From Promethearchaeota archaeon (GTDB taxonomy: Archaea; Asgardarchaeota; Lokiarchaeia; Sigyniarchaeales; SOKP01): DNA of 64,000 nucleotides. This document shows positions 4,469 to 59,870 of this stretch, in pieces (position 1 is the first letter of the stretch; every line of letters starts with the position of its first letter). Under the pieces are notes generated by a model. It was not told the DNA's origin, did no database searches, and worked only from the letters and a program-made list of their open reading frames with translations. The stretch spans positions 32,001 to 96,000 of the forward strand of contig JAUVXW010000004.1 in NCBI GenBank assembly GCA_030603385.1, in the 5' to 3' direction. Made by a program: the position numbers and the translations under genes.

Positions 4469-5935
4469 GTGTCGAAAGAAGAATATTATAAACCTACTTG
4501 GAATTCTTTAAAGAAGCATAGAACTCCGGAGTGGTTAGACGACGCAAAATTTGGGATTTACTACCATTGGGGTGTTTATTCAGTTCCTGCATGTGGCCCT
4601 AACGTCAGTTGGTATCCGCTCTGGATGTATAGAAAAGGTTCTCGACAATATGAATACCATGTTAAACATTATGGAGATCCATCTGAATTTGGTTATAAAG
4701 ATCTAATACCCCTGTTTAAAGCAGAAAAATTCAATCCCGATGAGTGGGCAAAATTATTTAAAGATGCGGGAGCTAAATTCGCCGGTCCTGTTGCGATTCA
4801 TCATGATTCCTTTGCCATGTGGGATAGTAAGGTAACTAAATGGAATGCTACCAATATGGGTCCAAAGAGGGATACTGTCGGTGAAATGGAAAAAGCGATA
4901 AGAAAGCAAGGTATGAAGTTTATGGTTGCATTCCATCATGCTGCAAATTGGTTCTTCTTTCCACATTCTATTCCTGAATATGATACTTCAAATCCAGAAT
5001 TCGCAGGGTTATATGGTGTGAGATACAATGGGAAATATAAACGATATCAGGTATGGCCAAATAAAGAATTTCTTGATTGGTGGAAAGCTATTGTTATTGA
5101 AGTAATTGATAAATATAAACCTGATCTTATATGGTGGGATTTTGGATTGGGAAGGATTAATGAAAAATATAAAAAAGAAGTTTTGGCACATTATTTTAAC
5201 AGCGCTGATGAATGGGGAAAAGAAGTTGAAATACTTTATAAAATGAACAATATTCCCCCCGGAGTGGGGGTAGTTGATTACGAAGTGGGGCGGGCAAATA
5301 AATTAACATATTATAAATGGATAACAGATACTTCTGTAGATATTAATGCTCAAAGTACAGCCTGGGGTTATGCTCGAGAAGCGGGTGTAAAGTCATCTAG
5401 AATACTCGTTCATAATTTCATTGATCGAGTGGCAAAACATGGTTATTTAGTTATTAATGTGGGTCCAAAGGCTGATGGCACTATACCAGAGCTCCATCAA
5501 GAAGCATTACTGGATATGGGAAAGTGGTTGGAACTTAACGGGGAGGCTATTTATGGAAGTACCCCCTGGTCAATTGCTGAAGAAGGACCTACAAAATTGG
5601 ACGAGGGTGGTATGTTTTCTGAAAGAAGTGATCGACCGTACACTCCAGAAGATATCCGGTTCACAGTGAAGGATAATGCACTTTATGCAATTGTATTAGG
5701 ATGGCCTTATAGACCAAAATGGACAATTTCAACCCTTAGAAAATCTTTAATAAATGTAGATCAAAATGAAAATAATTCAATCCATCTTATCACAGAGGAA
5801 GAAATCAAATCTATTAAAATGTTGGGAGTTAATCAAGATCTTAGATGGACATTAGACGATGATGGCTTACATATAGAAGTTCCAGATAAAAAGCCATGCG
5901 ATCACGCAGTAACTTTCAAAATTAGTTGGAATTAG
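4469..5935 (+). CDS. Alpha-L-fucosidase (GH29)
   Basis: WLDDAKFGIYYHWGVYSVP, HHDSF, DLIWWD nucleophile, NVGPKADG. Confidence 0.92.
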   Translation: MSKEEYYKPTWNSLKKHRTPEWLDDAKFGIYYHWGVYSVPACGPNVSWYPLWMYRKGSRQYEYHVKHYGDPSEFGYKDLIPLFKAEKFNPDEWAKLFKDAGAKFAGPVAIHHDSFAMWDSKVTKWNATNMGPKRDTVGEMEKAIRKQGMKFMVAFHHAANWFFFPHSIPEYDTSNPEFAGLYGVRYNGKYKRYQVWPNKEFLDWWKAIVIEVIDKYKPDLIWWDFGLGRINEKYKKEVLAHYFNSADEWGKEVEILYKMNNIPPGVGVVDYEVGRANKLTYYKWITDTSVDINAQSTAWGYAREAGVKSSRILVHNFIDRVAKHGYLVINVGPKADGTIPELHQEALLDMGKWLELNGEAIYGSTPWSIAEEGPTKLDEGGMFSERSDRPYTPEDIRFTVKDNALYAIVLGWPYRPKWTISTLRKSLINVDQNENNSIHLITEEEIKSIKMLGVNQDLRWTLDDDGLHIEVPDKKPCDHAVTFKISWN

Positions 5936-38735: not shown

Positions 38736-40565
38736 ATGTTAGAAATGGCAAAAGCTGATAAATCTAATCTCATCAATGTTGAAGAGTTTAATAAAAGATT
38801 TCAAGAATGGGTTAAAAACCATGCTGAACTCATCCAAGAAATTGGGAAAATTTTTGAAGAAAATAAAATTTCATGGGGATCCATTCTTGAACAAAATGCT
38901 CAAAAATACCCTAATAATCCCGCTATTAAATTTGAAGATACTATTCTTACTTATAAAGAATTTAATGACAAGGTTAACCAGTATGCGAATTATTTTATCT
39001 CTTTAGGTTTGAAAAGAGGTGATGTCGTAAAGGTTTTAATAAAGAACCGCATTGAATTATTGCTGGTTTATACCGCTAATGCTAAAATCGGAGTAATATC
39101 TTCAATGATCAATACTGATCTTCGCAAAAAAACCCTAGTGTATAGTTTAAACCTAACACCTGGCAAGATTGTTGTAATTGGTGAAGAATGTTTTAATGCT
39201 TTTAATAAAATTAAGTCTGATGTCAATTTATCAGATGCCAAACAACTCTGTTTTATAAATGATAGTGGGGACATGAACCTTCCTGATGAATTCATTGACC
39301 TTCCGCAAACTGTAATGGATTTCCCTGTAGAGAATCCACCAACTACAATTGATGTTAAGACTTCAGATGTTATTGCTTATATATTTACTTCCGGTACGAC
39401 GGGCTTACCTAAAGCAGCACTTTTAACACATTATAGAGTAATTGCTGCGGGTTCTGTTTTTGGGAGAATGATCGCAGATTTTTCTTCTGATGATACTATG
39501 TATATTCCACTACCTTTTTTTCACGGTACAGCTCTAATGACGGGATGGCCATCCATCTTTATTTATGGAGGTGCTTTAGCTTTAGCCCGTAAATTCAGCG
39601 TTAGTCTCTTCTGGGAAGATGTTCGTAAATTTAATGCGACTGGCTTTAATTATGTTGGAGAAATATGTCGCTATCTAATGAATCAACCTTCTAAACCAGA
39701 TGATTCAAATAATCCTGTTAGAGTAGTGATTGGGAATGGTCTCCGTCCAGAAATTTGGCTAGATTTTAAAAAACGATTTAAGATCCCTTTTATTGGAGAA
39801 TTTTATGGGTCATCAGAAGGAAACGGAGCATTTGCTAATGTATTAAATTTTGATTGTACATGTGGATATTCTGCTGGCGGTTATGCCATTGTAAGGTACG
39901 ATCTTGAGGAAGATAAACCCATTAGAAACACGAGAGGATTTATGAGAAAAGTACGTAGAGGTGAAGTTGGCTTAGCTCTATTCGAAAGTACGGAAACAAG
40001 CAAATTTAGGGGGTATACTGATAAAAATGCAACTGAAGCGAAGCTGTATCATAATGTTTTTAAAGAAGGAGATGAATGGTTTAATTCAGGCGATTTAATG
40101 CGGAATCAAGGATGTAGTCATGCCCAATTTGTTGATCGTCTCGGAGATACTTTCCGATGGAAGGGACATAATGTTTCAACTACTGAAATAGAACAAATCC
40201 TTAATATATTTGATCAGATCTCAATGTCATCTGTTTATGGGGTTAAAATACCATTGGTAGATGGACGAGCAGGAATGGCAGCAATTGTTCTCTCATCCAT
40301 CGTTAATGAATTTGATTTCAAGGAACTAGCAAGGCTTTTTAATGATAATCTTGCCCCATATGCCATACCAATTTTTCTCAGATTTAAGTCAGATCTCTCA
40401 ATAACGTACACTTTTAAACTTAAAAAAGGAAAACTCAAAGAAGAAGGCTTCGACCCTCAACATATTGAAGATACCCTATATGTTATGCTACCAAACGAGT
40501 CAGAATACATACCTATGACGAAAGATATCTATAAGAACATTCAGAACCAGAAATATAACTTTTAA
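38736..40565 (+). CDS. Long-chain acyl-CoA synthetase (FATP/FadD6-like)
   Basis: YIFTSGTTGLPKAA, YVGEICRYL, GNGLRP, DRLGDTFRWKGHNVSTTE. Confidence 0.92.
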   Translation: MLEMAKADKSNLINVEEFNKRFQEWVKNHAELIQEIGKIFEENKISWGSILEQNAQKYPNNPAIKFEDTILTYKEFNDKVNQYANYFISLGLKRGDVVKVLIKNRIELLLVYTANAKIGVISSMINTDLRKKTLVYSLNLTPGKIVVIGEECFNAFNKIKSDVNLSDAKQLCFINDSGDMNLPDEFIDLPQTVMDFPVENPPTTIDVKTSDVIAYIFTSGTTGLPKAALLTHYRVIAAGSVFGRMIADFSSDDTMYIPLPFFHGTALMTGWPSIFIYGGALALARKFSVSLFWEDVRKFNATGFNYVGEICRYLMNQPSKPDDSNNPVRVVIGNGLRPEIWLDFKKRFKIPFIGEFYGSSEGNGAFANVLNFDCTCGYSAGGYAIVRYDLEEDKPIRNTRGFMRKVRRGEVGLALFESTETSKFRGYTDKNATEAKLYHNVFKEGDEWFNSGDLMRNQGCSHAQFVDRLGDTFRWKGHNVSTTEIEQILNIFDQISMSSVYGVKIPLVDGRAGMAAIVLSSIVNEFDFKELARLFNDNLAPYAIPIFLRFKSDLSITYTFKLKKGKLKEEGFDPQHIEDTLYVMLPNESEYIPMTKDIYKNIQNQKYNF

Positions 40566-40599
40566 AGAGGATAATATTTTAAAACTATATAAAATTTAA

Positions 40600-41573
40600 C
40601 TATATGTTAAAACCATCATCAAAATCATCATAATCTTCAAGGTCAAACCTTTTCCTTTCTTCTTCTTTCTTTTCTCTTTTAAGTTCTTTACGATCCTTAC
40701 GAGTAAGCTCATCTTTTCGTTTAACATAAATTTGTTCATATCTTTCTCTCAAAGCCTCAACATCTTCAACATGACCAATTTTGTCTTCCAATCCATCTTC
40801 AAAGAAAAAGTTCCGTTTGAATTTCTTAGCAGGAACACCCACATATATATAGTTTTTTTCTAAAACTTGTCCAACCGTCGTTACAGAATTAGCTGCTAAA
40901 ATACAATTATGCCCAATTTGAGTGCCTGGCATAACTATTGCGTGTGAACCAATCCTGACCTCATCTTCAATCACTGTCTTCCGTATTATCAACAAATTGC
41001 CTACGATTACAGCAGATTGGATGATTGCACCTTGTCCAACCACTACATCTTTTCCAAAATCTATAAATTCTGTATCAACCCATCCTTCGAACAAACTGTT
41101 CGAGATTTTAGTTTTTACTCCAAACATTTTGAAACAGACATTATCTAAAAATCCAGGGAAAGGGAATCTATGAGCAAGCCAGATTGGCCACCTTTTTATA
41201 GTATTCCGTAAACTCCAGTATCGGTAATCTTTATCTTCTGGAATTCTTAGGAAAACCCCTTCTCGAGGCTTATGAATTGCATTAACAATAAGTAGCAATA
41301 TTTTAGCAAAAATAATTGCTGAAAAAACAAGAGTTATATACATCAGAAATGCTAAAAGTGGTAGAAACGTGTAAAAATGAACGGGTCTTGCATAATTCCA
41401 TAAAAGTTGCCAATACACCCATAATTCCACGAGTATTGGTAATATACTTATCCAAATAAGAAAAATATAAAAAATCAAATAACGTTTCTTTACCAATACC
41501 GTCGGCGTGAATGGCCTTGTGTGAAAATGCGAATCGCATCTTACTCTACACGCATTGTATTTGGAACCGACAT
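40600..41573 (-). CDS. TM + left-handed beta-helix protein, module type C; predicted spliced CDS join(41573-41546,41516-40600), 314 aa
   Basis: AGGAG SD upstream of ATG 41573; spliced N-terminus MSVPNTMRVGPFTPTVLVKKRY is colinear with paralogue MSVPASLNVGPNTTLTLVKKRY; hexapeptide repeats. Confidence 0.85.
41517..41545 (-). other. 29-nt bulge-helix-bulge intron in a protein-coding gene
   Basis: AGTAAGATGCGATTCGCATTTTCACACAA; central helix GUGU/ACAC, bulges AGA and AAG, flanking helices on both sides; removal restores frame and the paralogue-conserved Gly-Pro. Confidence 0.82.
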
Positions 41574-41735
41574 TACTCTTCTCCTTTAACTTACTTATTT
41601 CTGTTTCTTTTTTACTACTTTTTTATTTAATTATTTAATAACTATAGATATTTACTAATATATCTTATTAACTAAAAATAAATCTTATAAATTATAAAAT
41701 CTACTTATAGTTAAAATTAGAAGTCCTCATTTTTG

Positions 41736-42884
41736 TTAGTTATTTAGAGCCATTTTGGTATAAATTGAAATAATATCTCCATCTTCAATTATATGGTTTA
41801 AATTAGCAATTTTTTGACCTGGATGTCTTGCAGAGTTCCCCCATATTAGCGAAAACCGAAAATCTTTTACAAATCTTTTATGAATCTTACGACAAAGAGT
41901 TTTCATGTTATCACCTTTATGAAGAATTATTGGTTCATCCATATCTGCTTCTTTTTTAGGAGGCTTTAAATATACTCGAATTAAATTCAATTCTTGGAAA
42001 ATACGATGGCGAAGTGCATTTATATTTTCTTGATTTTTTGCTGAAATCATGACCCAATGATTGTGCCCAATAGATTCCGTGATTTCTTCTGGTGAGAGTG
42101 GAATCTTCATCAAATCTACTTTATTAATTACAACAAATTCTTTTGTATAAACCCGATTTCCCATTATAAAATCAATTAATTGATCCGGTGTAGTATTTGG
42201 CTCAGAAAAATACACTCCTGCATTAAGAAGACCTAATTCGTTTGATAAAGCTTTAACCTCATTTTTATCCATTAATTGAGGGCCTTTTGAAGTGAAGTGA
42301 ATCCCACCTCGAGTTTATTCTTTAATAGAAATTCGTGATGGTCGACTATTTAAACGGATACCCGCATTATTTAGTTCATTTCTAATTTTTTTCAAATCTA
42401 GAAAATTGATGGTTCCATCTTCTCGAAAACAAATGATTATTAGAATCAATTCAGCTGTCCGTACAGCACCTAAGACTTGTTTCCCTTTACCTTTTCCGGT
42501 GGCGGCTCCTAATATGATACCTGGCAAATCTATCAGCTGTATTTTAGCATCCTCAATATTCATCATACCAGGAATGGCAGTTATTGTAGTAAAATCGTAA
42601 GCTGCTACTTTTGAATGAGTATCACCTTCAGTTAATAGGTTAAGCAATGATGATTTCCCAACGGATGGAAATCCAATAAAAGCTACTTGGGCATCACCCG
42701 ATTTTTTAATCCCAAAGCCCCCGCCACCTCCTTTCTTAGAACTCGCGATTTGAATCAAATTTTCTCGGAGTTTGGCTAATTGGGCTTTAATATAATTTAT
42801 ACTACGCTGAGTGCTCTTATTTGGGATAGTCTCTGCTAACCGTTCCTCAAGCTCCTTAATTCGATCTTCAACTTTTTCACTCAT
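41736..42884 (-). pseudogene. DRG/Rbg-family GTPase with TGS domain, interrupted by in-frame TAA at 42315-42317
   Basis: GFPSVGKS, YDFTT, DLPG, NKVD, SAK, TGS; reads ISIKE*TRGGIHF in one frame. Confidence 0.8.
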
Positions 42885-43125
42885 TCCATGTATATAAAAC
42901 TACTATATCCAAAAAAATTTTCGAAAATTACCTAAGAAAAAGGTTTTTAATAAAGTTGATAATTTAGAAAAACATTTCAGAAGCCATTATGACGATATGG
43001 GTTATTAGTTGATGCCCATTGACCGAAATAATAGTTCGTAGAGGAATTTATTTTAGATAGATGGTAATAAAGAAAATTAAGTACTGAAAATTTTAAAAAT
43101 ATAACAAAAATAAAATAAAAGTTAA

Positions 43126-44343
43126 TTATTCCATTCTTTTCCTTCTGCGTCTTATTAACAGTAGGGCTGCTACACCAATCAATGCCCCTCCACTAATAAC
43201 CGAAATTAAAATAATCAGTTCGATTGGAATTCCACCATCTTGAGCTGAAATTGGACATTTCATTAATGGAAAATTGTCTTGACTTCCTCCAGTAATAATA
43301 TATGGTGTATCCCCAATTCCATCACCATCTTCGTCTGAACCCGTATAATCAGCCCAATAATTACCCTTAATTCCATTATCCCATTCATTAATAGCACCCT
43401 CATCATCAGCATTGAGAGTATTATTAAAACAATTTAGATATATGTTGTTAAATAAAGAAACATGCACGTTTATTCCAGCATCCCCGTTATGATTTACGGT
43501 GTTTCCTGTAATATTGTTATACAAACTACTCCATAAAGATATCCCCCATCTGTTGTTAAAGGAAATAACGCATTCAGATATAATGTTATTATCAGAATCA
43601 GTAATACCAATCCCAATATTATCATTATTATTTACAGTGTTTTCAGAAATAATGTTATTAATACAATCTCCTAAAATTACCCCATTCCAGTTGTTTTCAC
43701 ATATGTTTCCCGAAATGGTATTATTATCACTACTAAGGCCTAATGATATCCCCTCCCCATATTCTGCACCATTTACCGAATTTCCTGAAATTTCGTTATT
43801 ACTACTATGAGTTAAATATATTCCATCCACACTATTATTACTTACTGTATTTCCCGAAATTTCGTTATTGCTACTACTCGATACACGTATACCATGACCG
43901 TTATTATTTGAAACGTTATTGTTTATTAATAATCCATTACTCACTGATGATAATACGATACCCGCATTTGGATATTCAGCAGAATTATAAACTCTACAAT
44001 TTTCTATTTTGAAATACACATTGGAATTTGCAATCCAGATACAACTGCTAGAATTTTTCCCATCGATTATCAAATCTTCTATAACATACGGTTCAGAAAA
44101 GGTACCATTCCCCGTACAATTTCCCGCACTTTTAAAAGCAAGCCACCCAGAATTATCGTCAATATGAATTTTTCCCGAAACTGCTGAGATTTTTGGAATC
44201 TCGTTATTGAAAATAATATCATCGCTATAGCCCGAACTTTTGTTGTAATTGTCCGTAATATAACTAAGATTAGTGGTGATTATTGGTAATAATGCGAAAA
44301 GGATTCCTATGATGATTAAATTTGATTTTACATTTGATTTCAT
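43126..44343 (-). CDS. NosD/pectin-lyase-like right-handed beta-helix surface protein
   Basis: Signal/TM, GIxLxxSSNNxISGN repeats, GNYWADY, DGDGIGDTPY, C-terminal TM + RRRRKR. Confidence 0.85.
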   Translation of the reverse strand: MKSNVKSNLIIIGILFALLPIITTNLSYITDNYNKSSGYSDDIIFNNEIPKISAVSGKIHIDDNSGWLAFKSAGNCTGNGTFSEPYVIEDLIIDGKNSSSCIWIANSNVYFKIENCRVYNSAEYPNAGIVLSSVSNGLLINNNVSNNNGHGIRVSSSSNNEISGNTVSNNSVDGIYLTHSSNNEISGNSVNGAEYGEGISLGLSSDNNTISGNICENNWNGVILGDCINNIISENTVNNNDNIGIGITDSDNNIISECVISFNNRWGISLWSSLYNNITGNTVNHNGDAGINVHVSLFNNIYLNCFNNTLNADDEGAINEWDNGIKGNYWADYTGSDEDGDGIGDTPYIITGGSQDNFPLMKCPISAQDGGIPIELIILISVISGGALIGVAALLLIRRRRKRME

Positions 44344-44612
44344 ATTATTTTCACTATATTAGAAAAATATAATTTGTATGTGATTAGTAATTAAGGTAAT
44401 TTCCTTTATAACATTTCAATCTATTAAGGAATAAATCAATTAACATTTCTGTCAATTAAGTATAACGGGTTATAATAACAAGATTATTTTCTTATTTCAT
44501 AAATGCTCTCAAATGTTAGTTTTTGCCCTCTCTTTTACAATGTGAAACTTTTGGACTAATAAAATATTTAATTTGTTAATAATAAGCTTACTTCGCTGAA
44601 AATACTGATATT

Positions 44613-46505
44613 TTATTCCTCTTCGTCCTTTGTTTTTATTAAATCTTTTTTATCTTCATCTATATTTACTTCATGCGAAACTTCAAATTTTTTTGCTTCA
44701 TCTACATCTCTTTTCATAAGAATTTCTCTTTTTGATTCAGCGTACTTATTTTCTTTCAATTCTATAGCAGGTATACCAAAATATATCCAGCCAGGTTTTA
44801 AAACTTGATCGTAGGTGGTTGAACTAATTGCTCCAATTACAGATTCTTTTTTTATAATAGTTCCTGGTGCAATTGAAGTCTGTCCTCCAACCATAACATA
44901 GTCATCAAATAAAACACCCTTAATTAATAAATATTTTCCAACAACCATGGAAGACATAATGGTTGCCCCCTGTCCGATCAGAACTTTACGACCTAATTTA
45001 ATAAATTCAGAGTCACACCACGTATCAGCTAAATGACTTGAAAAATCCATATCAACCCCAAGTTGCTGAAAAGCTATTACATCTACCCATGGAAATGGTG
45101 AATTCCGTAAAAACCATAAAGAAATCTTCTTTATTTGCGTTCGGAGCTGCCAGAATTCAAAATCTGTGCTTCCTATTTGCGCTTTAAAAACGCCCTCTTT
45201 AGGTTTATGAATTAAATTTACTAATATTAAAAGTAATTTACTGAAAAGAATACACGCTACTATAAAGATGTATAGCAATCCAAATAAGATGACTGGAAAA
45301 AAAAGAAAAAATGGTAAATGAAATCTTATAGAATTTCCATCTATTATATCCCCGGAATACCAATACCATAGGATTGTAATAAGTAAACCTGAAATCCAAA
45401 ATATTGGTATATAGACTAACAAAAACTTTACATTCACTCTGCTTATCGCAGAGCTAGTTGTGAAATCAATCGCCAAATCTTCTTTTGAAAGACTATTAAT
45501 ATCTATTTTTTCTTCTTGTAAGTCATCCAACAATTGTGTGTTATTAGGAACTTTATCTGTTTTCTCTAATCTACGCTCTTTCTCTTTCAATTGATTTAAT
45601 AATTTTTTATCTTTATACTCTTCAATATTCGCATTCTTTTCTAGATCCTTTGGTTTAACATCTAAGTATTCCATAATCTTTCTTCTAAAGATTCTTCTCA
45701 TAGGCATTCCATAATAAAAGTGTTTTCCTCCCTTTAATACACTATGTTTCGGTGTAGAAGCTAGAGGTAATAGATATGAATCATCAAAAATCTCACATCC
45801 TGGGGCAATATTGGCAAATGCAGCAGATGTTACATTATTACCAACTTTAATTTTAAAATAGGAGATATTGCCAAAGATCCCCTCAACAAAATGGCTCGCT
45901 AATGTAGTATTCACACCAATATAACAGTTCTCGCCGCATTCTATAAATTTATCCATACCGACAGACTCCTCAAAGGTTGTACCTTTTCCAATTTTGTTTG
46001 AGCCAACAAAATTAAAAAACCAGTTGCTGAGCCAAGGAAATATACCCTTATTAAAAGTGTTTTTTCCGTATTTTATCATAAAAGCCCTGATATGATAATA
46101 ATTTGCTGTTCTACTTTTTACATTTCGTGGAATAATTCCAGATATCGATGGAGATGTTCTTTCCGTAATTCTCCATATAATTCGTGTGATTAACCCTATC
46201 AGAAATAAGTGAATTAAATAGCACATTATAAGAACTAATGGCATAAATAAAAGAGATATCAACGATTTAAAATCAGTAAAAATTGATATAAAACTAAGAT
46301 TTTCTAAAAAGTATATCCGAAAGGGAAAGAAAAAGTATAACAAAAAAACAAATCCGGGGATTACCCATGAAATGTAATAAATAATAAAGAAAATAATAAT
46401 ATACAAATGAAATTGAACACTTACCTCCTCTTTAATGACTTCATTATTCAATTCATTAGAAGAGGGATGTTCAATTTCACTGTCTTCGTTGTTCATTTCT
46501 ACCAT
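44613..46505 (-). CDS. TM + left-handed beta-helix protein, fused modules A+B
   Basis: Two [2TM + hexapeptide] units; ASHFVEGIFGNISY; SSMVVG. Confidence 0.85.
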   Translation of the reverse strand: MVEMNNEDSEIEHPSSNELNNEVIKEEVSVQFHLYIIIFFIIYYISWVIPGFVFLLYFFFPFRIYFLENLSFISIFTDFKSLISLLFMPLVLIMCYLIHLFLIGLITRIIWRITERTSPSISGIIPRNVKSRTANYYHIRAFMIKYGKNTFNKGIFPWLSNWFFNFVGSNKIGKGTTFEESVGMDKFIECGENCYIGVNTTLASHFVEGIFGNISYFKIKVGNNVTSAAFANIAPGCEIFDDSYLLPLASTPKHSVLKGGKHFYYGMPMRRIFRRKIMEYLDVKPKDLEKNANIEEYKDKKLLNQLKEKERRLEKTDKVPNNTQLLDDLQEEKIDINSLSKEDLAIDFTTSSAISRVNVKFLLVYIPIFWISGLLITILWYWYSGDIIDGNSIRFHLPFFLFFPVILFGLLYIFIVACILFSKLLLILVNLIHKPKEGVFKAQIGSTDFEFWQLRTQIKKISLWFLRNSPFPWVDVIAFQQLGVDMDFSSHLADTWCDSEFIKLGRKVLIGQGATIMSSMVVGKYLLIKGVLFDDYVMVGGQTSIAPGTIIKKESVIGAISSTTYDQVLKPGWIYFGIPAIELKENKYAESKREILMKRDVDEAKKFEVSHEVNIDEDKKDLIKTKDEEE

Positions 46506-46600
46506 TAAAAGCTTTGATTTGCAATTGATCCTTATTATATTTTAATAGATATTTTTTTCCTTTTAAATTTATGAGTCTTAAGCATAGATAAAGATTTGCT

Positions 46601-46996
46601 ATGAATAACAAATGTGAAAACTGTGGAAAATGTTGTTTAGATACAGAAATGATTCTTTCTTTTGAAGATATCGAATTAATAAAGAAAAATTCAATCGATA
46701 ATATAGGAGAAGGTGATTTTGTGTTTAAAAATGAAAATGAGCAATTTCAACTCAAAAACATTGATGGTCATTGCGTTTTTTTAAATTACTCTGCAAAGAA
46801 ATGTAACATTTATGAATTTCGACCTCAAGGATGTAGATTTTATCCATTAATCTATGATATTAACAAAAAAAAATGCTTACTTGATGATGATTGTCCTAAA
46901 AAGGATCAATTTTATAATACAAAACAAAGTCTAAAAATTACATGTTCGAATTTGAAAAGGTTTTTAGAACAACAATTTACTTTGAAAATTGATTAA
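46601..46996 (+). CDS. YkgJ/UPF0153 cysteine-cluster protein
   Basis: CENCGKCC, CVFL, CNIYEFRPQGCRFYP. Confidence 0.88.
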   Translation: MNNKCENCGKCCLDTEMILSFEDIELIKKNSIDNIGEGDFVFKNENEQFQLKNIDGHCVFLNYSAKKCNIYEFRPQGCRFYPLIYDINKKKCLLDDDCPKKDQFYNTKQSLKITCSNLKRFLEQQFTLKID

Positions 46997-47008
46997 AGTT
47001 GAGATATC

Positions 47009-48847
47009 CTAGGTCAGATCTTTTTTGTCTTCTTCAATGTTAATTTTATGCTCAACTTCAAACTTCCTCTCTTCATCTACATCTTTTTTCATAACAATAT
47101 CACGTCTTTCTTCAGCATATCGGTTTTTCTTTAATTTAATGACGGGAATTCCAAAATATATCCATCCTGGTTCGAGGATCTGATTATATGTAGTTGAACT
47201 TATAGCTCCAACGACTGAATCCTTACCTACTATTGTTCCAGGTGCAATGGTTGATTGTCCTCCTATCACTACAAAATCATCAAGAATAACATCTTTAATT
47301 AATAAGTATTTTCCAACGACCATTGATGACATTACGGTAGCACCTTGACCTATTAGAACGGATCTTCCCATTTTTATAAATTCACCATCGCACCACGAGT
47401 CAAATAAGGAACTTGAAAGAGTCATTTTTATACCCATTTTTTTAAAAACTAATATGTCCATCCAAGGAAGAGGCCAATTTCGTATAAGCCATAAAACAAT
47501 TTTTTTTAACTCTGTCCGTAAACACCAAAATTCGAAATCACCATTACCTTTTTCAGCTTTAAAGACCCCCTCTTTTGGTATATGAATTAAATTTATTAAA
47601 ATTAAGAATAATTTAGTAAAAAAGAAACTCGCTATAATAAAAATAAACCACATAAGGATGACCATCGTTGGTAAAAAAAATGCCATAACCAACCACCTAT
47701 TATATCCAACATAATAAGTAAATGTATAAAACATTATGGTTACTAGCATACCAGAAAGCCAAAATATAGGAACATAGACAACTAAAAATTTTAAATTTAC
47801 CCTTGAAATTGCACTACTTGTCGTAAAATCAATTCTTAAATCTTCTTCATTTATATTATTAATATCAATATTATCTTCATTTGAATCTGTGAATTCTTGT
47901 TCATATTTAGGAAAAACTTCAGATTGTTTGATATCTTTCATGGCTTTTAATTTTTTTAACAGATTTTTATCTTTATAGCCGTTAATATTTTCATTTTTTT
48001 CTAAATCCTCTGGTTTAACACCTAAGTATCCCATAATCTTTTTTCTAAAGATTCTTCTCATCGGAATTCCAAAATAAAAGTTTTTTCCTCCCTTTAATAC
48101 ACTATGTTTCGGTGTAGAAGCTAGAGGTAATAGATATGAATCTTCAAACACCTCACTTCCCGGAGCAATGTTAGCCATTGCAGCAGCGGTTACGTTATTA
48201 CCAACTTTAATTTCAAAATAGGAGATATTGCCAAAAATCCCCTCAATTAGATGGCTTGTTAAGCTTGAATTTACTCCAATATAACAATTCTCGCCTATGT
48301 TAATAAATTTATCATTAACACAAGATTCTTCTAATGTTGAACCTTTAGAAATTTTACTAGCTCCAATAAAATTAAAAAACCAGTTGCTGAGCCAAGGAAA
48401 AAGCCCTTTCATAAAAGCATTCTTTCCTTGCTTAATCATAAAACCTCTTATTTGATAGTAATTCAATGTTTTACTTGGGAAATTTCTTGGTATAATCCCT
48501 TCTTTACTTGGTGACCTTTTTTGGCTCAAACTCCAAAAACCACGTGTAATTAGACCTATGAAAAATAACCGGAGAAGATAACAACAAATGAGAACAAAAG
48601 GCATAGAGATTAATGCTAATAAAGGCTTAAACTCGGTAAAAAGTGCCAAAAAATTAGTAGTTTCTAAAAAATGTGGTAAGAAAAAAAGAATCATATAAGT
48701 CATAAATAAAATTGCCGGAATTAATAAAGAAGCTAGAAAAATTGTAAAAAGAATAAAGAGATACCAGAAATATGGATTTTTAATTTCTTCTCTAACAGTT
48801 TTTTCCTCTAAGCTATCCTCAGTCGATTGTTGCTCTATCGTTGTCAA
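47009..48847 (-). CDS. TM + left-handed beta-helix protein, fused modules A+B
   Basis: Paralogue of 44613-46505; TSHLIEGIFGNISY. Confidence 0.85.
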   Translation of the reverse strand: MTTIEQQSTEDSLEEKTVREEIKNPYFWYLFILFTIFLASLLIPAILFMTYMILFFLPHFLETTNFLALFTEFKPLLALISMPFVLICCYLLRLFFIGLITRGFWSLSQKRSPSKEGIIPRNFPSKTLNYYQIRGFMIKQGKNAFMKGLFPWLSNWFFNFIGASKISKGSTLEESCVNDKFINIGENCYIGVNSSLTSHLIEGIFGNISYFEIKVGNNVTAAAMANIAPGSEVFEDSYLLPLASTPKHSVLKGGKNFYFGIPMRRIFRKKIMGYLGVKPEDLEKNENINGYKDKNLLKKLKAMKDIKQSEVFPKYEQEFTDSNEDNIDINNINEEDLRIDFTTSSAISRVNLKFLVVYVPIFWLSGMLVTIMFYTFTYYVGYNRWLVMAFFLPTMVILMWFIFIIASFFFTKLFLILINLIHIPKEGVFKAEKGNGDFEFWCLRTELKKIVLWLIRNWPLPWMDILVFKKMGIKMTLSSSLFDSWCDGEFIKMGRSVLIGQGATVMSSMVVGKYLLIKDVILDDFVVIGGQSTIAPGTIVGKDSVVGAISSTTYNQILEPGWIYFGIPVIKLKKNRYAEERRDIVMKKDVDEERKFEVEHKINIEEDKKDLT

Positions 48848-49010
48848 TTTATTAAATTTTTAATTTTGATTTATATTTAGTAATTAAGATAATTTTTCTA
48901 AAAAACTCAATGTTTTAAAAATATGACCTAATTGTAAAATTGATTACTTGTTAAAAGAGTCTTTATAAAAGCAATTAAATATGAAAATAAATTAAAAAAT
49001 TAGAGGCTTT

Positions 49011-50843
49011 TTAAGCAAGATCTTTTTTGTCCTCATCTACATTGATTTCATATTCAATTTCATACTTTTTCTCTTCGTCTACATCTTTTTTCATAAGGAT
49101 TTCTCTTTGCGATTCAGCGTATTTGTTTTCTTTTAGCTTGATAACAGGAATTCCAAAATAAATCCAGCCTGGTTCGATAATTTGATTATATGTGGTTGTA
49201 CTAATAGCACCAACAACGGAATCTTTACCTATTATTGTTCCAGGTGCAATGGTTGATTGTCCTCCTATCACAGCAAAATCATCGCATATAACCTCTTTAA
49301 TTATTAAATATTTTCCAACGACCATTGAGCTCATAACCACAGCCCCTTGACCTACAAGGTTTTTACGCCCAAATTTAATAAATTCACCATCACACCATGA
49401 ATCATATAAAGTACTGGAAAGAGACATTCTTATTCCCCCAAATTTGAAGGCTAATATGTCCATCCAGGGAAGAGGCCAATTACGTATAAGCCATAGAACA
49501 ATTTTCCTTAATTCGGTCCGTAAACACCAAAATTCCCAATTAGTGTCTCCAACTTCGGATTTAAAGATACCTTCTTTAGGTTTATGTATTAAATTGATTA
49601 AAGTTAAAAATAATTTACTGAAGAAGAAACAAGCCAGTATAAAAACAAACCACATAAGGATGACCATCGTTGGTAAAAAAAATGCTATAACCAACCAGTT
49701 TCGAACATAAAATGTGAACGTATAAAACATTATGGTTACTAGCATACCAGAAAGCCAAAATATAGGAACATAGACAACTAAAAATTTTAAATTTACCCTT
49801 GAAATTGCGCTACTTGTTGTGAAATCAAGTGCTAATTCTTCTTCTGATAATTTATTAATATCTATTTTTTCTTCTTGTAGGTCGTCCAACATTTCTGTGC
49901 TATTAGGAATCTCATCTGTTTTCTCTAATCTACGTTCTTTCTCTTTCAATTGTTTTAATAATTTTTTATCTTTATACCCTTCAATATTCTCATTTTTTTC
50001 TAAATCGCCAGATGTTATCTCTAAATATTCCATAGTTTTTTTTCTAAATATCTTTCTTAATGGAAGCCCCCAATAATAATTATTTCCTTTTAGTGCACTA
50101 TGTTTTGGAGTTGAAGCTATTGGAAGTAAAAAAGAGTTGTCGTAGACTTCTGATCCAGGGCCAACGATATTCATTACTGCTCCAGTAACATTATCTCCCA
50201 CTTTTACCTTAAAGTAAGAAACATTCCCAAAAATTCCCTCAGTAGCGTGGCTGGATATGGCAGAATTAACCCCTATGTAGCAGTTCTTGCCTACTTCAAT
50301 AAATTTATCATTACTTACGGACTCCTCAAAGGTACAACCTTTTCCGAATTTACTTGCTCCGATAAAGGTGAAGAACCAATTACTAAGCCATGGAAAAATA
50401 CCTTTCATAAAGGAATTCTTTCCGTATTTAATCAAAAAGCTCCTAATATGATAATACTTGAGAATTCTACTTGGAAAATTTCTCGGAATTATCCCATCTT
50501 TACTAGGGGATTTTTTTTCACTCGATTTCCAAAAAGCACGAGTAATTAATCCCACGAAAAATAAGCGGATTAAATAACAACCAATAAGAACCAAGGGCAT
50601 AGAGATTAATGCTATAATGGGTTTAAATTCAGTAAAAAGCGTGATAAAACTTGTAGTTTCTAAGAAATGTGGTAAGAAAAAAAATCTCATATAAGTCATA
50701 AATAATATAGCAGGAATGACCAATGAAGCTAAAAAAATCGTAAATAGCATGAAGAGATACCAAAAATATTGATATTTAATTTCTTCTCTAATCATTCCGT
50801 TCTCAGAATCGTTTTCAATTGACTGTAATTTAGTATCTGCCAT
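49011..50843 (-). CDS. TM + left-handed beta-helix protein, fused modules A+B
   Basis: Third paralogue; SSHATEGIFGNVSY. Confidence 0.85.
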   Translation of the reverse strand: MADTKLQSIENDSENGMIREEIKYQYFWYLFMLFTIFLASLVIPAILFMTYMRFFFLPHFLETTSFITLFTEFKPIIALISMPLVLIGCYLIRLFFVGLITRAFWKSSEKKSPSKDGIIPRNFPSRILKYYHIRSFLIKYGKNSFMKGIFPWLSNWFFTFIGASKFGKGCTFEESVSNDKFIEVGKNCYIGVNSAISSHATEGIFGNVSYFKVKVGDNVTGAVMNIVGPGSEVYDNSFLLPIASTPKHSALKGNNYYWGLPLRKIFRKKTMEYLEITSGDLEKNENIEGYKDKKLLKQLKEKERRLEKTDEIPNSTEMLDDLQEEKIDINKLSEEELALDFTTSSAISRVNLKFLVVYVPIFWLSGMLVTIMFYTFTFYVRNWLVIAFFLPTMVILMWFVFILACFFFSKLFLTLINLIHKPKEGIFKSEVGDTNWEFWCLRTELRKIVLWLIRNWPLPWMDILAFKFGGIRMSLSSTLYDSWCDGEFIKFGRKNLVGQGAVVMSSMVVGKYLIIKEVICDDFAVIGGQSTIAPGTIIGKDSVVGAISTTTYNQIIEPGWIYFGIPVIKLKENKYAESQREILMKKDVDEEKKYEIEYEINVDEDKKDLA

Positions 50844-59021: not shown

Positions 59022-59870
59022 TTAGTCAATTTTAGTTTCTTTGTCCACACGCATTGTATATAACTCTTCAAATTTTTCGTGTGATTCTATTTCCTTTTCT
59101 ATTTGCTTTTCAATTATATCTTCTAATCCTTCTTCAAAAAATACGTTTTTTTTGAACTTTTTTGCGGGAGCTCCTAAGTATATAAAATTTTCTTCTAACT
59201 CTTGACCAACAGTAGTCAAAGAATGCCCTCCTAAAATTGAATTCTTTTTAATATGTGTTCCAGGCATAACAACACTGTGAGCACCAATTACTACATTATC
59301 TTCTATAATTGTTTTTCTTATAATAAATAAATTTCCGACTATTAGAGCTGATTGAACAATAGCACTTTGCCCAACGACTATATTTTTTCCAAATTCAATA
59401 AATTCCGTATCAACCCACCCTTCAAAAAGTGAATTTGAATATTTAATTTTCATACCAAACATTTTTAAACATATATTATTCATAAATGGGAAGGGGAATT
59501 TATGAGATATCCAAATTGGCCATTTCTTTATCGTACTTCTTAAACTCCAGTATCTATAATCTTTATCAGAAGAGTGCCTTAAAAAAATACCCTCTCGCGG
59601 TTTATGAATACGATTGACGATTATGAGAAATATCTTAGCAAAAATTAAGGATACGATAATAGAAGTTAGGTACATTACAAAAACTAAAAGGGGTAAGAAA
59701 AAAAGGAAGTGAATAAATTTTGGCTCATAAAGTTTCCAAAACAACCAAAATTCAAATTGAATTGTAAAAATACTAATCCAGATCAAAAAAATATAGAAAA
59801 TTAAGTATCTCTTTTTTACTAAAGTAAGAGTAGTATTTGGTCCAACATTTAAACTTGCGGGTACTGACAT
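59022..59870 (-). CDS. TM + left-handed beta-helix protein, module type C (intron-less paralogue)
   Basis: MSVPASLNVGPNTTLTLVKKRY...DKDYRYWSLR...SNSLFEGWVDTEFI. Confidence 0.88.
   Translation of the reverse strand: MSVPASLNVGPNTTLTLVKKRYLIFYIFLIWISIFTIQFEFWLFWKLYEPKFIHFLFFLPLLVFVMYLTSIIVSLIFAKIFLIIVNRIHKPREGIFLRHSSDKDYRYWSLRSTIKKWPIWISHKFPFPFMNNICLKMFGMKIKYSNSLFEGWVDTEFIEFGKNIVVGQSAIVQSALIVGNLFIIRKTIIEDNVVIGAHSVVMPGTHIKKNSILGGHSLTTVGQELEENFIYLGAPAKKFKKNVFFEEGLEDIIEKQIEKEIESHEKFEELYTMRVDKETKID

Follow-up and report, generated by a model that had tools for sequence, protein, structure and literature searches.

Introduction

Splicing by the endonuclease EndA inside an archaeal coding sequence was, as stated in 2020, represented only by cbf5 (PMC7714728), the crenarchaeal pseudouridine synthase gene whose pre-mRNA carries a bulge-helix-bulge (BHB) intron for which both gain and loss have been inferred (Yokobori 2009, PMC2738675). 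In this report, we examine a 29-nucleotide insert at codon 10 of a gene for a membrane hexapeptide-repeat protein, which resides on the minus strand of a 64,000-nucleotide stretch of DNA from a Promethearchaeota archaeon (contig JAUVXW010000004.1, positions 32,001 to 96,000; hereafter called the window). From comparisons among related sequences, we consider it very probable that the insert, which spans window positions 41545 to 41517, is an archaeal BHB intron that is removed from the mRNA. A first-pass annotation of the window had proposed this same reading, and it is supported here by the exact boundaries of the insertion, by the register of the predicted cuts, by a second version of the insert that is 30 nucleotides long, by purifying selection, and by the presence of genes for EndA and for the ligase RtcB.

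The insert resembles the cbf5 intron in that it is short and lies in coding sequence, in that a two-subunit EndA is likely to be involved, and in its presence or absence at one exact site among relatives. It differs in gene, in phylum (Asgard archaea versus Crenarchaeota), in intron sequence, and in its placement at codon 10, just past the start. Given that the host is a hexapeptide-repeat membrane protein gene, the insert falls outside the cbf5 lineage, and the Asgard element would share the mode of action of the cbf5 intron without being its homologue. Splicing of cbf5 has been shown by reverse transcription PCR and in vitro cleavage, whereas the Asgard case is built on comparative evidence. 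The cbf5 intron is said to have been treated also by Watanabe in 2002 and by Yoshinari in 2006.

A second described system is HVO_1309 of Haloferax volcanii, for which circular RNA sequencing and an in vitro assay revealed a 46-nucleotide BHB intron in the 5′ untranslated region (Schwarz 2020, PMC7714728). In both cases EndA would act close to the 5′ end of an mRNA, and HVO_1309 seems to require the removal of its intron to be well expressed. In the Asgard case the action of EndA is presumed, and the HVO_1309 intron, unlike the insert described here, sits in an untranslated leader and interrupts no reading frame. Asgard archaea have been reported to carry heavily interrupted tRNA genes, in a study that makes no mention of mRNAs (bioRxiv 10.64898/2026.10.13.758758). 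The insert shares with archaeal tRNA BHB introns the same motif, cut register and size range, its bulge bases resemble those of tRNA introns in the same genome, and the same enzymes are presumed to process it. Unlike those introns, it has an mRNA host and its exon side is coding, such that codons 8 to 10 have a double role, in the protein and in the helix.

There is also a likeness, by analogy only, to the eukaryotic HAC1/XBP1 system, which uses IRE1 and a tRNA ligase or RtcB. In each case splicing would be independent of the spliceosome, would remove a short frame-changing intron through a protein endonuclease and RtcB-type ligation, and would be required for full-length protein. However, IRE1 cuts the 7-nucleotide loops of twin stem-loops and is regulated by stress, whereas the cuts predicted here fall in 3-nucleotide bulges beside a 4-bp helix, with no sign of regulation. 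The idea of a regulated ‘gating’ switch at this locus is speculation.

No Asgard mRNA BHB case was found in the full-text literature searched, where the coding-sequence cases were those of crenarchaeal cbf5 only. Our comparisons support a second, unrelated coding host gene for EndA-type splicing, in Asgard archaea, for a kind of splicing that is already known. If this proposal is correct, mRNAs are among the substrates of the tRNA-splicing machinery in those prokaryotes that are most closely related to eukaryotes, and gene callers truncate or misread such genes, yielding in this instance a 272-residue or read-through product in place of one with 314 residues. The locus would also provide a small defined substrate (57 nucleotides) for examining Asgard EndA specificity, and its patchy, non-sister distribution and identical flanking tract make intron gain, loss and transfer testable.

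Results and discussion

Removal of the insert reproduces a conserved N-terminus

The following elements of the window define the interrupted gene and its competing start codons.

41581 to 41585, minus strand: AGGAG, a Shine-Dalgarno (SD)-like sequence 7 nucleotides ahead of the ATG, with GGAG or GGTGG at the same spacing in four strain alleles
41546 to 41573, minus strand: exon 1 (28 nucleotides), comprising the ATG, eight more codons and the first base of codon 10
41517 to 41545, minus strand: the predicted 29-nucleotide BHB intron, which breaks codon 10, contributes an in-frame TAA (41543 to 41541) and shifts the frame
40600 to 41516, minus strand: exon 2, which begins with the second base of codon 10 and ends with the stop codon
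41494 to 41496, minus strand: TTG, the first possible start in the exon 2 frame and thus a rival start, which has no SD and which orthologues do not maintain as a start codon
41416 to 41418, minus strand: GTG, used as the start in a public gene call (protein P0147, 272 amino acids), which truncates the gene
59022 to 59870, minus strand: an intron-less paralogue with the same N-terminal pattern

The ATG at 41573 to 41571, which is preceded by AGGAG at 41585 to 41581, opens a frame of nine sense codons followed by GAG and then by the TAA at 41543 to 41541, such that translation would stop after 10 codons. The 298-codon main frame (40600 to 41496) is a different one. It remains open upstream through the insert, but no ATG, GTG or TTG occurs in this frame upstream of the TTG at 41496. 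Exon 1 encodes the same nine residues as uninterrupted orthologues, and removal of 41545 to 41517 makes codon 10 GGG and reproduces the N-terminus of these orthologues exactly. If the removal window is moved by one base, codon 10 becomes Arg or Glu and the Gly is lost.

We searched 40 relatives at the protein level and scanned all 54 genomes of the same genus with a degenerate pattern. Orthologues that are uninterrupted from the ATG through a conserved KKRY-type motif were recovered as 35 copies in 34 of the 54 genomes. All 35 copies carry (V/L/I)-G-P at the junction. The N-terminus of the orthologue was identified in 36 genomes of the genus, and two of these carry the insert, namely the genome from which the window derives (G000) and that of one other species (G003). 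Within G000 the interrupted gene has no other close copy. The existence of the 29-nucleotide insert, as first noticed in the window, is confirmed. The SD sequence, the ATG, the early stop and the unspliced 10-residue peptide given in the first-pass annotation are all confirmed as well, and the sequence of the paralogue at 59022 to 59870 indeed starts in the same manner and lacks the insert.

Public gene calls mishandle the host gene. Among three relevant proteins (P0147, P0133 and P0146), two begin at an internal GTG and have 272 residues, and the third, with 327 residues, translates exon 1 and the intron in an incorrect frame. No product of 314 residues that corresponds to the spliced form is present for this strain in the protein collection searched, where its matches consist of truncated or read-through calls. 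The nearest uninterrupted public protein, which is 92.7% identical, comes from another strain.

The insert boundaries coincide with a predicted bulge-helix-bulge

The RNA corresponding to the junction region can be folded into the architecture known as hBHBh′, in which a central helix (H) is flanked by two bulges, an outer exon-exon helix (h) and an inner helix (h′). Its parts are located as follows.

41548 to 41551, minus strand: 5′ strand of central helix H (GUGU), in exon 1, which pairs with 41522 to 41519 and is the same in G003
41519 to 41522, minus strand: 3′ strand of central helix H (ACAC), in the intron
41545 to 41547, minus strand: 5′ bulge (AGA), with the predicted cut between 41546 and 41545
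41516 to 41518, minus strand: 3′ bulge (AAG; UAG in G003), with the predicted cut between 41517 and 41516
41523 to 41544, minus strand: inner helix h′ and loop, with a G41544-C41523 pair, an unpaired U41543, an 8-bp stem (41542 to 41535 with 41531 to 41524) and a 3-nucleotide loop (41534 to 41532)

Helix h is formed by pairing of 41553 to 41552 with 41515 to 41514. The central helix and two 3-nucleotide bulges are present in both G000 (AGA and AAG) and G003 (AGA and UAG). These are flanked by an h of 2 bp and by an h′ that in G000 comprises 1 plus 8 bp with a single unpaired U between them, and in G003 an uninterrupted 7 bp. The product that would be joined has the same junction as the uninterrupted orthologues, among which Gly-Pro is invariant in the 35 copies. 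Every part of the fold that had been listed at first pass (outer pairs, 4-bp helix, two 3-nucleotide bulges and inner hairpin) is present, and the proposal that cleavage just 3′ of the second nucleotide in either bulge excises 29 nucleotides and restores Val-Gly-Pro agrees with the orthologue junction.

To place a value on chance formation, we used our own strict BHB scanner, which demands a 4-bp central helix, two 3-nucleotide bulges, at least two outer pairs and an inner helix, with intron lengths of 12 to 80 nucleotides. Both strands of the 3.9-Mb, 58-contig genome G000, whose contig C36 includes the window, were scanned. The names of the sources of near-identical proteins assign this genome to the Asgard group (Lokiarchaeota/Promethearchaeota). 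The scanner recovers the site as an intron spanning 41517 to 41545, with a length of 29 nucleotides and an inner helix of 1 plus 8 bp. BHBs of equal quality occur at 5,159 of 5.37e8 pairs of position and length genome-wide, or about 1e-5. This value is the relevant probability because both the position and the length of the insert are fixed independently by the orthologue alignment. No covariance model of Rfam 15 matched 41300 to 41800 at E values up to 1, and a blastn-short search found no second copy of the insert elsewhere in G000.

Both forms of the insert can also be read as GT...AG introns that begin with GTAAG, which would correspond to a spliceosome-like intron shifted by one base (41544 to 41516). 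However, this register creates Val-Glu-Pro rather than the invariant Gly, and the GT and AG already follow from the bases of the bulges. To our knowledge, no spliceosome is known in archaea. We therefore assign this explanation a vanishingly small probability.

Several points weigh against a BHB intron at this site. The outer helix h has only 2 bp, which puts the motif at the relaxed end on its exon side. In G000, the full BHB has a constrained free energy of -8.8 kcal/mol, compared to -13.2 kcal/mol without constraint, and so lies 4.4 kcal/mol above the minimum free energy (MFE). Plain MFE folding consequently misses the complete motif in G000, and the folding z score of about -1 is unremarkable, although plain MFE folding is not decisive for a motif that is recognized by protein. 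Support for the structure from sequence variation is thin, as only two intron types are available and no classical double compensatory change separates them. Furthermore, cleavage and ligation are themselves inferred from the comparative evidence, and a shorter protein that begins at TTG 41496 or GTG 41418 may also be made.

A second species carries a 30-nucleotide version

G003 represents the sole other species with an insert, which occupies the same site, has a length of 30 nucleotides and is also carried by metagenome contig L042. The two versions show four differences, all in the 3′ half. Two of these strengthen h′, in that an inserted G pairs with the U that is unpaired in G000 and a G·U pair becomes G-C, giving the continuous 7-bp stem. 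Of the remaining two, one breaks an apical pair and the other changes a base in the 3′ bulge. The central helix, the size of both bulges and the outer pairs are unchanged, and unconstrained folding of the G003 RNA recovers H, the 5′ bulge and the 7-bp h′. The alignment of orthologues that had been suggested for checking the proposal gives an exact presence or absence of the insert at the site, but no covariation in its classical form.

The existence of two lengths bears on the possibility that translation passes from the ATG frame to the long frame by recoding, either through frameshifting such as a -1 shift, through hopping of the type known for T4 gene 60, or through stop codon read-through. 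A stop codon and a hairpin do follow the last sense codons of exon 1, which creates a superficial likeness to the coding gap of gene 60. In contrast to what recoding would call for, neither a programmed bypass nor a frameshift signature (matched take-off and landing codons or a slippery heptamer) is evident in 41517 to 41573. Exon 1 has no slippery heptamer, and the 3′ end of the gap lacks a landing codon that matches the take-off codon GUA. In addition, a recoded product would lose the Gly at the junction. The two forms would need different recoding events, specifically a frameshift for the 29-nucleotide form and stop read-through for the 30-nucleotide form. A single BHB cut rule, which yields the Val-Gly-Pro junction in both species, accounts for both forms. 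We regard recoding as highly improbable.

The 30-nucleotide intron of G003 (locus L011, near position 1468) includes a TTG in the exon 2 frame, and ORF finders consequently report a 310-residue open reading frame (ORF) that starts within the intron. A long-range helix between the beginning of exon 1 and exon 2, with 5 to 6 bp in G000, was also considered as a structural element and was dropped since it is not kept in G003.

Insert-bearing alleles retain the signature of a translated gene

Metagenome contigs were scanned for exact words and contigs were looked up, which located the 29-nucleotide form in three more assemblies (L039, L040 and L044) and the 30-nucleotide form in one (L042). Together with G000 and G003, six assemblies carry the insert. 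The first-pass annotation had allowed that raw DNA reads might lack the insertion, but its carriage by six assemblies establishes it as real DNA. The 29-nucleotide intron is identical in contigs L039, L040 and L044. Among the four alleles with this form, none of the 29 intron sites varies (P of about 0.003 if they changed as often as four-fold sites), nor does any of the 28 sites of exon 1. In exon 2, by comparison, the variable sites at codon positions 1, 2 and 3 number 9, 5 and 44, and 19 of 103 four-fold sites vary (18%). Pairwise ratios of nonsynonymous to synonymous change (dN/dS) range from 0.09 to 0.14 among intron-bearing strains, and the 304 downstream codons are free of stops and frameshifts in every allele. 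The leader varies among strains, whereas the SD-like GGAG or GGTGG and the ATG are kept. This pattern of variation indicates that purifying selection in intron-bearing strains acts on the body of the gene as well as on exon 1 and on the SD and ATG.

These data largely argue down the notion that the locus is a decaying pseudogene with a chance insertion, or an assembly artefact. In favor of decay, the insert is present in so few genus genomes, and the neighboring DRG GTPase gene in G000 carries a nonsense codon. However, the independence of the six assemblies, the absence of disabling changes downstream, a dN/dS of about 0.1 within the intron-bearing lineage and the lack of another copy of the insert in the genome all stand against it. 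The coding signature of 9/5/44 among the four strains in particular largely refutes a pseudogene, and we consider either form of this explanation scarcely credible.

More serious is an arrangement wherein the insert stays in the mRNA, exon 1 is merely a dead or regulatory upstream ORF of 10 codons, and the protein starts at TTG 41496 or GTG 41418 without its N-terminal 17 or more residues. Indeed, TTG 41496 opens the long frame, public gene calls start at GTG 41418, the G003 insert contains an in-frame TTG, and selection on most of exon 2 would be equally expected with a downstream start. From the intron to TTG 41496 the strains show three changes, all of which are at third positions and synonymous in the exon 2 frame. 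This restriction to synonymous changes argues for translation of the stretch, and without splicing there is no start codon that could serve it.

Other observations are also difficult to accommodate with a downstream start. TTG 41496 has no SD, whereas that of ATG 41573 is kept across strains, and the Leu codon at 41496 is free to vary in orthologues (CTT, CTG, TTA, CTA and CTC). The 35 orthologue copies and the paralogue family all conserve the N-terminal segment that would be discarded. Exon 1 and the intron lack any variation, compared to 18% of four-fold sites, and a BHB in the exact register, with its chance value of about 1e-5, is left unexplained. A start at TTG 41496 had been named at first pass as an observation that would count against splicing. 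The frame is open from this codon, but the codon does not behave as a conserved start. Overall, we judge exclusive use of a downstream start to be unlikely.

Splicing enzymes and other candidate introns in the genome

If the insert is a BHB intron, the genome should encode the means to remove it. G000 has two genes with EndA domains (PF01974; 198 and 200 amino acids), located at C44:18747-19343 and C9:36191-36793 on the minus strand in each case, and one gene for RtcB (PF01139), all with scores over the cut-offs. The better EndA paralogue (198 amino acids) matches the catalytic chains 3p1z_B and 3ajv_B of the Aeropyrum heterotetramer. Asgard EndA has been reported to be an (alpha-beta)2 enzyme with an L1 loop that confers broad specificity (PMC5829648). 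The combination of a Crenarchaeota-like catalytic subunit and a second paralogue suggests that G000 has this broad-specificity (alpha-beta)2 form, which would fit a motif with an outer helix of only 2 bp.

A plausible series of events can be formulated on this basis. In the pre-mRNA, the GUGU at the 3′ end of exon 1 would pair with the ACAC near the 3′ end of the intron, flanked by the two 3-nucleotide bulges and the intron hairpin. EndA would then cut after the second base of each bulge, and RtcB would join the exons. The junction would create the GGG codon and a 314-residue protein with the same N-terminus as the orthologues that have no interruption. In contrast, unspliced mRNA would give only the 10-residue peptide from the SD-led ATG. 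Because the insert brings both an in-frame stop and a frame shift, the full-length protein is expected to need splicing.

The cut register was also applied to tRNA genes of G000 as a positive control, and it produces intact tRNA-Ser(CGA), tRNA-Ser(UGA) and tRNA-Arg(UCG). ARAGORN reports only 22 tRNA genes in this genome and assigns the intron-bearing ones incorrectly (e.g. C17:36067-36168 and C34:83412-83513). Once an intron in the BHB register is taken out, the gene reported as ‘Thr(tgt)’ reads as Ser(tga), and the one reported as ‘SeC(tca)’ reads as Arg(tcg).

The scanner also identified two BHB-type inserts in the gene for the proteasome alpha subunit, at C17:41993-42024 (32 nucleotides) and 42137-42165 (29 nucleotides), which correspond to 594 to 625 and 738 to 766 of locus L046. 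The three exons that these inserts delimit are colinear on PF00227, covering positions 1 to 60, 61 to 96 and 99 to 189. A genome-wide census that combined BHBs with ORF restoration gave 5,713 raw and 404 filtered candidates and was swamped by junctions of neighboring genes that mimic restored ORFs. The proteasome alpha pair is the portion of these candidates that was checked, and the census does not provide a count of introns.

A distribution that hints at lateral spread

Since the inserts in G000 and G003 are homologous and reside at one site, they are taken to share one origin. However, a tree built from exon 2 places the G000 gene as sister to that of intron-less G001 (support 99/99) and the G003 gene as sister to that of intron-less G017 (97/94), and a clade that unites both intron-bearing genes is rejected (p-AU, approximately unbiased test, 2e-5). 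The two genes have 78% overall identity and a synonymous divergence (dS) of about 1.1, and yet the first 44 nucleotides, which correspond to 41530 to 41573 of the window (exon 1 and 16 nucleotides of intron), are identical between G000 and locus L011 of G003. Every other 46-nucleotide window of these genes has at least three differences.

This pattern needs several precise losses, or recombination that moved the 5′ segment laterally, or a very strong constraint that acts on exon 1 of intron-bearing alleles, and the present data fit each of the three. The odd distribution, considered along with the identical 44 nucleotides, hints at lateral spread. Taking this thought further, the mini-intron might be mobile as DNA, having spread with a short tract of exon between species of the genus through homing-like gene conversion or recombination, as one of a population of tRNA-type introns that colonize genes for proteins in the archaea most closely related to eukaryotes. 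We offer this model tentatively, as a possibility that we currently hold to be somewhat on the doubtful side, on the basis of the non-sister placement in the tree, the identity of the 44 nucleotides and the at least two further inserts in the proteasome alpha gene.

The host gene and its neighbors

Exons 1 and 2 together encode a 314-residue product with a left-handed beta-helix (LbH, Hexapep) domain, which resembles a membrane acyltransferase and whose N-terminal hydrophobic segment is probably membrane-spanning. The host gene and three paralogues of 610 to 630 amino acids (window positions 38736 to 50843) show sub-threshold matches to TIGR02353, the terminal domain of Pls/PosA synthetases. 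A gene for a 609-residue AMP-binding enzyme adjoins the host gene in convergent orientation, and does so also in L039 and L044. The region may represent a split Pls-like membrane synthetase, which is a lead only.

Upstream of the host gene, a gene for a DRG/Obg-type GTPase (41736 to 42884) is split into two ORFs by a single in-frame TAA at 42315 to 42317 on the minus strand. The close strain represented by L039 has CAA (Gln) at this site and an intact gene of 382 codons. We ascribe this TAA to a nonsense mutation confined to the strain, or to an erroneous base, rather than to an intron. Between the GTPase gene and the first 630-residue hexapeptide gene lies a 405-residue ORF of the NosD/right-handed beta-helix type (43126 to 44343, minus strand), in place of which L039 has only about 175 nucleotides, so that this ORF looks like a strain-specific gene insertion.
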